DNA of 24,000 nt, taken from contig NZ_CP124218.1 of NCBI RefSeq assembly GCF_045571515.1, positions 5,307,663 to 5,331,662 on the forward strand. Reading direction: 5' to 3'. The notes below the pieces were generated by a model. That model did no database searches. It was not told the DNA's origin and was given only the letters and a program-made list of their open reading frames with translations. Of the stretch, positions 20,060 to 20,374 are shown in pieces. Within the stretch, counting starts at the first letter, position 1. The number at the start of each line of letters is the position of its first letter. Origin of the DNA: Pseudomonas sp. nanlin1 (GTDB lineage Bacteria; Pseudomonadota; Gammaproteobacteria; Pseudomonadales; Pseudomonadaceae). The position numbers were made by a program, and so were the translations under genes.

Positions 20060-20374
20060 TTAGGCTGCTAGCGACCCTCCCGCTCCACCTGATCCGCCTA
20101 ACCTATCTATACCATTAGATATCCAACTCTGTACTGGGGTGTGTTCATTTATCAGGTTTCCAGCGGCCCAGCCTAAAGCCCCTGCCGCAACGACTGCTCC
20201 CCCTGCCATACTTCCGAGGCCAGCCTGCGTCAACAGTGCCGCACCAGTATTTCCGGCGGAAGCACCTAGCGACAATCCGACTCCTGCCCCAAGCGCGCCT
20301 CCAACTACCACAGCGTCCGCCGTATTGACTGCACCACTCACCATAAAAATCTCTTCGTCAGTCAGCTCCCGCAT
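20060..20374 (-). CDS. Class II microcin-like precursor peptide (15-aa double-glycine-type leader + 89-aa Gly/Ala-rich core)
   Basis: The ATG at 20374 has GAGG 9 nt upstream. The leader MRELTDEEIFMVSGA aligns position-for-position with the colicin V leader MRTLTLNELDSVSGG (M-R-x-L-T-x-x-E-[LI]-x-x-V-S-G-[GA]). The core is VNTADAVVVGGALGAGVGLSLGASAGNTGAALLTQAGLGSMAGGAVVAAGALGWAAGNLINEHTPVQSWISNGIDRLGGSGGAGGSLAA. A cognate C39 ABC exporter is encoded in the same island. Confidence 0.85.
   Translation of the reverse strand: MRELTDEEIFMVSGAVNTADAVVVGGALGAGVGLSLGASAGNTGAALLTQAGLGSMAGGAVVAAGALGWAAGNLINEHTPVQSWISNGIDRLGGSGGAGGSLAA

Follow-up and report, generated by a model that had tools for sequence, protein, structure and literature searches.

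A class II microcin-type precursor with a Gly/Ser/Ala tail beside an MchC/MchD-like pair in a low-GC island of a Pseudomonas chromosome

Introduction

MccE492, MccM and MccH47, which are microcins of class IIb, carry a siderophore that is anchored on the carboxylate of the C-terminal Ser and not on its side chain; in MccE492, the modification raises the mass by 831 Da, from 7887 Da to 8718 Da (PMC7680869). Verified class IIb microcins end in Ser, and some of them are active without modification (PMC12219008). The validated members all originate from Enterobacteriaceae (PMC11634061). In this study, we analyzed a microcin precursor gene and its neighboring genes in a stretch of 24,000 nucleotides from the chromosome of Pseudomonas sp. 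nanlin1, hereafter referred to as the window. Coordinates without a locus name are positions in the window.

Two other described systems are close to this locus. In Serratia marcescens, MchC/HlyC genes are located beside double-glycine precursors without the canonical class IIb end, for which an "as-yet-defined subclass" was proposed (PMC13101503). The mca locus of Acinetobacter baumannii contains the microcin Mcc17978/MccAB1, a hidden immunity protein with two transmembrane segments (2-TM), McaI, the cupin McaB, a membrane fusion protein (MFP) and a peptidase C39 ABC transporter (PCAT); McaB is needed for killing by MccAB1 and is dispensable for its secretion, and MccAB1 is iron-regulated and uses FepA/PfeA and YegH (PMC10333792; PMC13188072). 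MccAB1 permeabilises the inner membrane and forms amyloid via its GAV motifs, and its promotion of biofilm is independent of killing (PMC13188072).

Results

Precursor gene and peptide

The precursor gene, its parts and the gene directly upstream of it are as follows.

20060..20374, minus strand: microcin precursor gene, 104 aa plus stop codon, identified by its translation and family match
20330-20374, minus strand: leader MRELTDEEIFMVSGA, 15 aa, double-glycine (Gly-Ala) type
20063-20329, minus strand: core of 89 aa, which contains AGNLINEHTPVQSWI and ends in GGSGGAGGSLAA
20120..20161, minus strand: family motif GNLINEHTPVQSWI, residues 72-85
20063..20098, minus strand: Gly/Ser/Ala tail GGSGGAGGSLAA (residues 93-104), presumably the handle that an MchC/MchD-like pair recognizes and uses for attachment
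20377..20622, minus strand: protein of 81 aa that has two hydrophobic segments and whose C-terminus is basic, described from sequence and hydropathy

The gene runs from an ATG at 20374 to a stop codon at 20062-20060. The open frame reaches a GTG at 20380, and the ATG was chosen because it yields the MREL start common to all homologues. A Shine-Dalgarno sequence (GAGAGG) is located 9 nt 5′ of the ATG, which itself follows the stop codon of the upstream 81-aa open reading frame (ORF) by 2 nt. The 81-aa protein is likely an immunity protein that is translationally coupled to the precursor, by analogy with McaI, a proven immunity protein in A. baumannii (PMC13188072).

The leader matches M-R-x-[IL]-x9-G-[GAS], the signal pattern of class II microcins (PMC12219008). 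An earlier reading of the bare sequence, referred to here as the original prediction, had proposed such a Gly-Ala leader; the fit to this pattern, the invariance of G14 among homologues and the presence of a C39 exporter with an MFP and a TolC-like protein bear it out. Our translation also agrees with the predicted Cys-free, Lys-free 89-aa core and its ending, to which we add that the gene lies on the minus strand. The composition of the core is G22 A19 L10 V8 S7 N5 T4 I3 D2 Q2 W2 M1 E1 H1 P1 R1; thus, Gly and Ala account for 46%, and Cys, Lys, Phe and Tyr do not occur. The unmodified 89-aa peptide has a computed average mass of 7,981.8 Da (monoisotopic 7,977.08 Da) and an acidic computed isoelectric point of 4.5. 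The predicted C-terminal tryptic peptide, LGGSGGAGGSLAA, has a computed [M+H]+ of 974.490 when unmodified. GAV motifs are found at residues 14-16 and 59-61 of the precursor. The AlphaFold2 model of the precursor was of low confidence (pLDDT 57), and the tail was disordered in it. The peptide is without NCBI annotation; Logan assemblies are the only known source of the exact sequence, which occurred identically on three independent contigs.

A double-glycine-type signal, an exporter made up of PCAT, MFP and a TolC-type protein, a peptide of about 5-10 kDa and a small membrane protein as neighbor were all found, as for class II microcins. Judged by sequence, the precursor is a genuine class II microcin-type gene, and its neighbor is a putative immunity gene.

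Homologues of the precursor and their conserved module

Word-indexed searches returned two matches with the peptide and nine with the family owing to low complexity, so that an exhaustive search was needed; in the word-indexed search with the window peptide, the sole relative was P0002 (48% identity). We built a profile from these two sequences (A1) and performed an exhaustive HMMER search of 1.84 billion proteins. This gave 67 cluster representatives at E ≤ 1e-3, 23 of which were at E ≤ 1e-10, and the best homologues had E values down to 1e-27, well outside what chance would give. Thirty-five family members were aligned (alignment A2), and a 12-sequence subset was used for a genome scan. The window peptide scored 113.9 bits (E 2e-31) against the A2 hidden Markov model (HMM), a model that includes the peptide itself. 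Evidence independent of this model comes from the identities of 46-48% to P0002 and 45% to the Variovorax homologue (L010).

Members of the family share a leader of the double-glycine type, a hydrophobic core rich in Gly and Ala, and a C-proximal module, G-x3-G-x2-[LI]-N-x2-T-P-[IV]-Q-x-W-I. In the 35 aligned members, G14 of the leader (position − 2) and G72, N76, T79 and Q82 of the module are invariant. The tails beyond the module differ among the members, and the Gly/Ser/Ala tail of the window peptide was seen in no other member.

Family members occur in beta- and gamma-proteobacteria and in cyanobacteria. Loci were found in 10 genera (Variovorax, Roseateles, Mitsuaria, Parazoarcus, Acinetobacter (A. 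guillouiae), Psychrobacter, Marinobacter, Rheinheimera, Microseira and Microcystis). HlyD and PCAT genes are recurrent at these loci, and a small 2-TM ORF is located directly upstream of the precursor, or overlaps it, in the window and at least nine other lineages. The cyanobacterial relatives in Microseira and Microcystis (L014, L016 and L017) carry the module, as WLNENTPIQxWI, behind long Nif11-type leaders with very short cores; neither a 2-TM ORF nor a cupin was found adjacent to them. As the module stands behind both Nif11-type and double-glycine leaders, it travels between leader types.

A JmjC_2/Cupin_8 protein of about 375 aa, similar to McaB, is present in the operon of seven independent lineages. 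Among solved structures, it is most closely related to the ribosomal oxygenases NO66, MINA53 and YcfD. With the cupin of locus L001 as the phmmer query, McaB-type cupins were detected in L001-6, L010-13, L015 and L021 and were not found in the window; none was found in any MchC cassette (described below). The seven cupin-linked precursors (L001, L010-L013, L015 and L021) all bear acidic tails rich in D/N/Y/G/S, namely DGDQ, EDSDGS, DGNDYCRDGGNY, DGDSE, GDDYSDGSAYC, DGDE and PDPSGTSYNEAGTNYN. Such a tail is mostly missing in members without the cupin, with the exception of Parazoarcus L018. This suggests that the McaB-type cupin acts on the acidic tail, which is relevant to why MccAB1 needs McaB. 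A McaB-type cupin was also noted at L031 (5001-6146).

Curated families did not cover the peptide. Pfam and NCBIfam gave no match for the peptide, the 81-aa ORF or a 606-aa ORF of the window (described below). The MccV family (Pfam PF17508) did not match the window peptide and matched 11 of the 35 family members below threshold, with a best E value of 1.2e-4. A PDB profile search with the peptide family returned nothing at E ≤ 10. The NCBIfam model E492_microcin (NF051486) gave 10.6 bits against a cutoff of 50 on the window peptide, covering residues 1-48 only; homology to the core of the MccE492 group, its …H-x-P-V-N-V-P-I-P… segment included, was not found, and NCBIfam scans across the family gave only sub-threshold MccV/E492 matches. 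When the family HMM was run against E492-, H47-, M- and V-type microcins (approximate sequences) and the Serratia E492/N-like precursor, scores were 12-24 bits and came from the leader and the N-terminal Gly-rich part only. On E492-type sequences, the alignment covered HMM positions 1-46, and none of the alignments reached the module. The likeness of AGNLINEHTPVQSWI to a segment of MccE492, as put forward in the original prediction, therefore did not hold: the segment is the hallmark motif of another family, and the HMM, NF051486 and PDB searches give no support for it. The sequence comparisons strongly support a widespread, uncurated family that includes Acinetobacter microcins.

Comparison with the Acinetobacter mca locus

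The window peptide resembles MccAB1 in its 15-aa leader of the GG/GA type, its Gly/Ala-rich core with GAV, its unannotated 2-TM neighbor and its PCAT and MFP. The module N-x2-T-P-I-Q-x-W-I is common to the window peptide, the A. guillouiae precursor (L011) and a "bacteriocin" of the A. baumannii plasmid pVB82_1. In the latter, which reads …GEWLNDNTPIQEWISDGIDKLTSDGNDYCEDGGDY, an Acinetobacter-type C-terminus follows the family module. The A. guillouiae operon has the order imm-precursor-cupin-HlyD-PCAT, which is of the mca type, and its cupin shares 78% identity with cupins encoded by A. baumannii plasmids.

Unlike the mca loci, the window is without a McaB-type JmjC cupin, which is needed for killing by MccAB1, and without the Acinetobacter C-terminal module (D)GNDYC(E/R)DGG(N/D)Y. 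Instead, the window has a Gly/Ser tail and MchC/MchD-like proteins, together with a TolC-like protein of its own, an SbmA-like protein and a cupin of another type, SCP2-JmjC.

Some further matches were noted. One plasmid match (H18) was disrupted by an insertion sequence (IS). McaB-type cupin homologues (46-49% identity) lie beside HlyD/PCAT genes on the Moraxella catarrhalis bacteriocin plasmid pLQ510 (L032, 39-797). They were also found, without annotation, in two Neisseria gonorrhoeae records (H15/H16), which are each of about 2.17 Mb and belong to a plasmid collection; we considered whether these correspond to the published nap island and rejected this, as no correspondence was found and the nap paper mentions no cupin.

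MchC/MchD-like pair and comparison with class IIb microcins

Two genes for putative maturation proteins are divergent from the immunity-precursor operon across a control region of about 200-280 bp, the pair being located within about 450 bp of that operon.

20817..22637, plus strand: MchC/MceJ-like maturation enzyme, 606-aa ORF; the NCBI model has 578 aa and would start near 20901
22627..23103, plus strand: MchD/MceI-like HlyC-family protein, 158 aa (Pfam HlyC 9.8e-18; ApxC 4whn 8e-8)

The 606-aa protein matches a hypothetical protein of Pseudomonas sp. nanlin1 at 100% identity. It has 119 homologues; Pseudomonas accounts for about 100 of them, with identities of 33-54%. Proteins named MchC in Erwinia, Gibbsiella and Serratia matched it at E values of about 1e-40, and the alignment with Serratia MchC showed 32% identity over 392 aa (E 1e-51). 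No PDB match was obtained by sequence search. The AlphaFold2 model (pLDDT 83, pTM 0.87) had YdiU/SelO AMPylases as its best Foldseek matches, with an E value of about 1e-10, probability 1.0 and TM scores of 0.53/0.64 over about 540 columns. This result agrees with the described relationship of MchC to SelO (PMC3281104). The protein differs from SelO/YdiU in that the identity is only 14-17% and it has an extra C-terminal region.

The MchD-like protein is 38% identical to the HlyC-like neighbor of Serratia MchC. Residues H93, E96, W97, E99, G100 and D107 recur in 29-30 of the 30 homologues compared, and the Asp of the F-I-D-W motif is retained. At the position of the catalytic His of ApxC, the MchD-like protein has Ser; a different His, H93, is invariant together with D107. 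These sequences suggest a remodelled active site in a microcin-maturation branch of the HlyC family. Since the presumed substrate contains no Lys, lysine acylation is excluded.

The window shares with the class IIb clusters (MccE492, MccH47, MccM, MccI47 and MccG492) the SelO-like MchC and HlyC-like MchD, PCAT/MFP and a small membrane immunity protein. Its core is unrelated to class IIb cores, and the producer is Pseudomonas and not a member of the Enterobacteriaceae. The SbmA-like, TolC-like and SCP2-cupin genes belong to the Pseudomonas cassette, and the SbmA-like gene has no counterpart in enterobacterial class IIb clusters. Among the window ORFs examined, no Pfam family of a MceC/MchA (IroB-like) glycosyltransferase or a MceD/MchS1 (IroD-like) esterase was found. 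The C-terminus of the tail is Leu-Ala-Ala. Strict membership in class IIb thus fails on the terminal Ser and on MceC/MceD, and homologues of MceJ/MchC and MceI/MchD are present. Because the class IIb linkage is made via the C-terminal carboxylate, a terminal Ala is chemically compatible with it.

The Serratia locus has two nonribosomal peptide synthetase (NRPS) genes beside MchC/HlyC and an E492/N-like core (…HMPVNVAIPQVPMGPTWNGSG…), whereas the window has no NRPS gene and a core of another family. In Serratia L028 (9636-19964) and L064-L066, MchC/HlyC genes were followed by two NRPS genes; the E492/N-like precursor beside them ended in …SSSLSTPDSSN and a second one in …NNNNTDSN, which makes this a further non-canonical setting of MchCD.

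MchC cassettes of Pseudomonas

We surveyed the contexts of MchC genes in P. brassicacearum, P. mosselii, P. reinekei and P. lactis, and in 40 metagenome loci. A recurrent cassette was observed at about 45 Pseudomonas-type loci, which comprises MchC, an HlyC-like protein, MFP, PCAT and OEP genes and an SbmA-like gene, with or without an SCP2-cupin gene and a GerE-type regulator gene. The SbmA-like gene is a constant member (L023, L024, L026, L027, L042, L046-50, L053-56 and L059-60). No glycosyltransferase, esterase or NRPS gene was found in the surveyed cassettes. In searchable literature, we found no description of this cassette.

Most cassettes long enough to judge have one or two Gly/Ala-rich precursors with a double-glycine leader nearby. 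Their tails consist of small residues and end in Ala, Ser or Asn (…NADRLGA, …NGSRLWGSGSTGA, …ARAGGGSSGA, …FFPQGPGGMGS, …FFPQAPSSPAS, …FFPQTPTAN, …MGGGSGA and …TRNISSS). The original prediction had reasoned that a peptide ending in Ala-Ala and not Ser must either be attached by a different chemistry or have its tail trimmed. This dilemma falls away, as the linkage is through the carboxylate (PMC7680869) and MchC-linked precursors of Pseudomonas end in GA, AS, GS, SS or AN. We considered whether a terminal Ala tracks the SCP2-cupin; once the 40 metagenome loci were included, this was broken by L042 (cupin present, …PAS) and L047 (no cupin, …TGA), and the lineages are not independent.

The N-x2-T-P-x-Q core occurs in none of the other cassette precursors, and no other locus of the precursor family has homologues of MchC, HlyC, SbmA or TolC. 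The two otherwise separate systems are joined only in the window; therefore, we regard the window peptide as a chimera, in which a tail and an enzyme module of the Pseudomonas MchCD type have taken the place of the native tail and cupin of an "Acinetobacter-type" toxic core. The window MchC is nearest (52-54% identity) to the MchC of a precursor group with the element "…GN(A/G)(D/S)R(L/M)…G", which resembles the …GIDRLG… native to the precursor family. This likeness may explain the capture of the core by the cassette.

Other genes of the island and putative regulation

The GC content is about 62% at positions 1-10187, which hold housekeeping genes (dapF, DUF484, xerC-like, HAD, amtB, LysR and PhoD-like), and about 43% over the remainder of the window, which begins at about 10.2 kb. 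Thus, the precursor sits in a low-GC island of about 14 kb in the Pseudomonas chromosome, where it is the sole leader-bearing peptide gene. The other annotated genes of the island are as follows.

10308..11570, minus strand: SCP2 plus JmjC/Cupin_8 Fe(II)/2-oxoglutarate oxygenase-like protein (Pfam Cupin_8 1.8e-30; SCP2 7e-7)
11534..12646, minus strand: SbmA/BacA-like membrane protein, 370 aa (Pfam SbmA_BacA 6.8e-28; ABC_membrane_2)
12685..14106, minus strand: TolC-like outer-membrane factor (Pfam OEP 5.7e-40; TIGR01844)
14110..16236, minus strand: PCAT (Pfam Peptidase_C39 2.7e-34; ABC_membrane; ABC_tran)
16247..17563, minus strand: HlyD-type MFP (Pfam HlyD_3/HlyD_D23; TIGR01843)
17754..17963, plus strand: LuxR/GerE-type regulator of 69 aa consisting of a helix-turn-helix (HTH) domain only (Pfam GerE 3.6e-19)
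20764..20781, no strand assigned: perfect palindrome of 18 bp (ACCCTACAGCTGTAGGGT) within the divergent promoter region, which may serve as an operator for the LuxR/GerE-type regulator

The SCP2-JmjC protein matched JMJD5 (3e-20), FIH (1e-14) and JMJD7 in PDB sequence searches, and its HxD is located at residues 304-306. It belongs to a JMJD5/FIH-like, SCP2-fused subfamily that is distinct from the McaB-type JmjC_2 proteins. It is possibly a peptide hydroxylase, by analogy with CzlI and BipG, which are precedents for JmjC peptide hydroxylases of peptides that are made by the ribosome and modified after translation (RiPPs). The SbmA-like protein has no ATPase domain, and in some loci its gene is in the same operon, directly 5′ of mchC; import of the acceptor and immunity are among its possible roles.

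A degraded IS5-family transposase gene with a broken frame was found at about 18231-18983, with about 74% nucleotide identity to IS5 copies of Pseudomonas plasmids. A 95-aa ORF (19219-19506, minus strand) downstream of the precursor has no Pfam match and is a called gene on identical Logan contigs. Rfam and tRNA scans found nothing.

A copy of the palindrome matching at 14 of 16 positions is located at 18006-21, beside the gene for the 69-aa LuxR/GerE-type protein; two sites were thus found, against 0.12 expected. The pattern CCTRCAGSTGTAGG also occurs beside GerE-type genes in the P. mosselii cassette L024 (2686, 3682 and 9863) and in Marinobacter L021 (9600), and homologues of the regulator are encoded in cassettes L023, L024 and L027 and at the family locus L021. 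In a consensus scan, no Fur-box match of ≥ 13/19 was found in any intergenic region; three were inside ORFs, against 4.3 expected. The palindrome and its recurrence suggest that the island may be controlled by the HTH-only regulator rather than by Fur. Scans of the relevant intergenic regions detected neither a sigma-70 promoter nor an intrinsic terminator.

Discussion

The gene is probably that of a secreted class II microcin with a family core and a tail to which the MchC/MchD-like pair attaches a moiety. By analogy with MceIJ, the pair would recognize the tail. The MchC-like enzyme would spend ATP to activate the C-terminal carboxylate, as the MceIJ reaction (PMC7680869) and the chemistry of SelO suggest, and the HlyC-fold partner would pass the peptidyl group to a nucleophile on the acceptor moiety. 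This moiety is probably not a glucosyl-enterobactin made in cis, because MceC/MceD genes are absent. The SCP2-JmjC oxygenase may add a hydroxyl group to the peptide. The PCAT would cut after Gly14-Ala15, and the 89-aa peptide would be exported via the MFP and the outer-membrane factor. The tail with its adduct would address an outer-membrane receptor for entry into related bacteria, where the Gly/Ala-rich helices may damage the inner membrane, as described for MccAB1. The original prediction had likened the tail to that of siderophore microcins. With MchC/MchD-like genes nearby, the tail is a plausible class IIb-like handle; the likeness is unproven in the enterobactin sense, as genes of the MceC/MceD type are absent.

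Several points weigh against a class IIb-like, modified microcin. The tail ends in Leu-Ala-Ala where class IIb peptides have Ser, and neither the window nor the complete cassettes L023, L024, L026 and L027 contain a glycosyltransferase, esterase or siderophore gene. The consensus scan showed no promoter Fur box, which leaves the siderophore aspect unsupported. The Ser at the ApxC His position makes the chemistry of the MchD-like protein uncertain. The AlphaFold2 model of the peptide is of low confidence (pLDDT 57). The link to MccAB1 is drawn via the operon type and Acinetobacter relatives and not via the sequence of MccAB1 itself. The IS5 remnant splits the precursor and mchCD from the exporter operon, and partial decay of the cluster is therefore possible.

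Other explanations of the locus were considered. It is rather unlikely that the peptide is an unmodified class IIa-like microcin whose tail is a flexible linker or receptor-binding end, with MchC and MchD serving another substrate or being relics. Such a peptide would be in keeping with family members that have internal poly-Gly but no MchC/MchD (P0145 at locus L029), with the activity of some class IIb microcins without modification (PMC12219008), with the rearrangement suggested by the IS5 remnant and with the window precursor being the sole member of its family in an MchC cassette. However, MchC and MchD are intact and keep the family-invariant residues, most judgeable MchC cassettes have a nearby precursor with a small-residue tail, and the precursor is the only leader-bearing peptide of the island, with mchC/mchD divergent from the same control region and its shared palindrome. 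An improbable alternative is a canonical siderophore microcin bearing a glucosylated, salmochelin-like catecholate that is made by genes elsewhere and taken up via catecholate receptors of the PfeA/PirA type. The MchC/MchD homologues, the Gly/Ser tail and the Cys-free peptide, as in class IIb microcins, are consistent with it, as is the iron-regulated use of the ferric-enterobactin receptor FepA/PfeA by the related MccAB1 (PMC13188072, PMC10333792). Against it, neither the window nor four complete sister cassettes yielded an IroB/MceC or IroD/MceD homologue, Ser is not the last residue of the tail and the MchD-like protein has a diverged active site; the absence of MceC/MceD, together with the lack of a promoter Fur box in the consensus scan, argues against a cis-encoded salmochelin-type moiety. 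Pseudomonas is, moreover, not generally known to make enterobactin.

The main role of the peptide could also be something other than killing, such as an extracellular structure (an amyloid or biofilm scaffold) or a signal, which we consider distinctly improbable. MccAB1 forms amyloid via GAV, with an effect on biofilm that is independent of killing (PMC13188072), and the window peptide has GAV at 14-16 and 59-61; cyanobacterial relatives with Nif11-type leaders have no immunity-like neighbors, and a LuxR-type regulator is present in the island. One of the two GAV motifs, however, straddles the site of cleavage and would not survive processing, and the precursor is coupled to a 2-TM immunity-type gene of its own; killing and structural or signaling roles can also coexist. 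The chance that the frame is no gene at all but arose in GC-rich DNA rich in Gly/Ala codons is negligible. The missing NCBI annotation and the sigma-70 promoter and intrinsic terminator not seen in scans would fit such a frame, but homologues with E values down to 1e-27, invariant leader and motif residues and occurrence in three phyla-level groups effectively refute it, and the operon context is conserved, with a Shine-Dalgarno sequence and translational coupling.

Beyond the preferred reading of a secreted microcin with a modified tail, we tentatively propose a wider one, which is possible though rather doubtful. The window and its sister cassettes may represent a widespread and previously undescribed Pseudomonas branch of "class IIb-like" microcins, in which the C-terminal carboxylate is joined to a moiety other than glucosyl-enterobactin by a SelO-fold MchC together with a remodelled HlyC-fold MchD, possibly with the help of the SbmA-like transporter and the SCP2-JmjC oxygenase, and in which tails and enzymes are swapped as modules between families. 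If this is true, the acidic D/N/Y-rich tails would be substrates of McaB-type cupins, which might, for example, beta-hydroxylate them and so make iron-binding ligands, and such hydroxylation would account for the need of MccAB1 for both the cupin and FepA.

The chemistry of class IIb microcins has been considered fixed: MceC/D make glucosyl-enterobactin and MceIJ join it to the terminal Ser. The locus described here and about 45 sister cassettes have a MceIJ-type pair in Pseudomonas without MceC/D, with tails that end in Ala, Ser or Asn. What else MchCD can attach thereby becomes directly testable. The locus also links the cupin-dependent microcins of Acinetobacter, in which the role of the cupin was left open in a 2026 paper, with class IIb maturation, two fields that were previously unconnected. 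The link suggests a modular logic of tail plus enzyme, through which it could become feasible to direct microcins at Pseudomonas and Acinetobacter.

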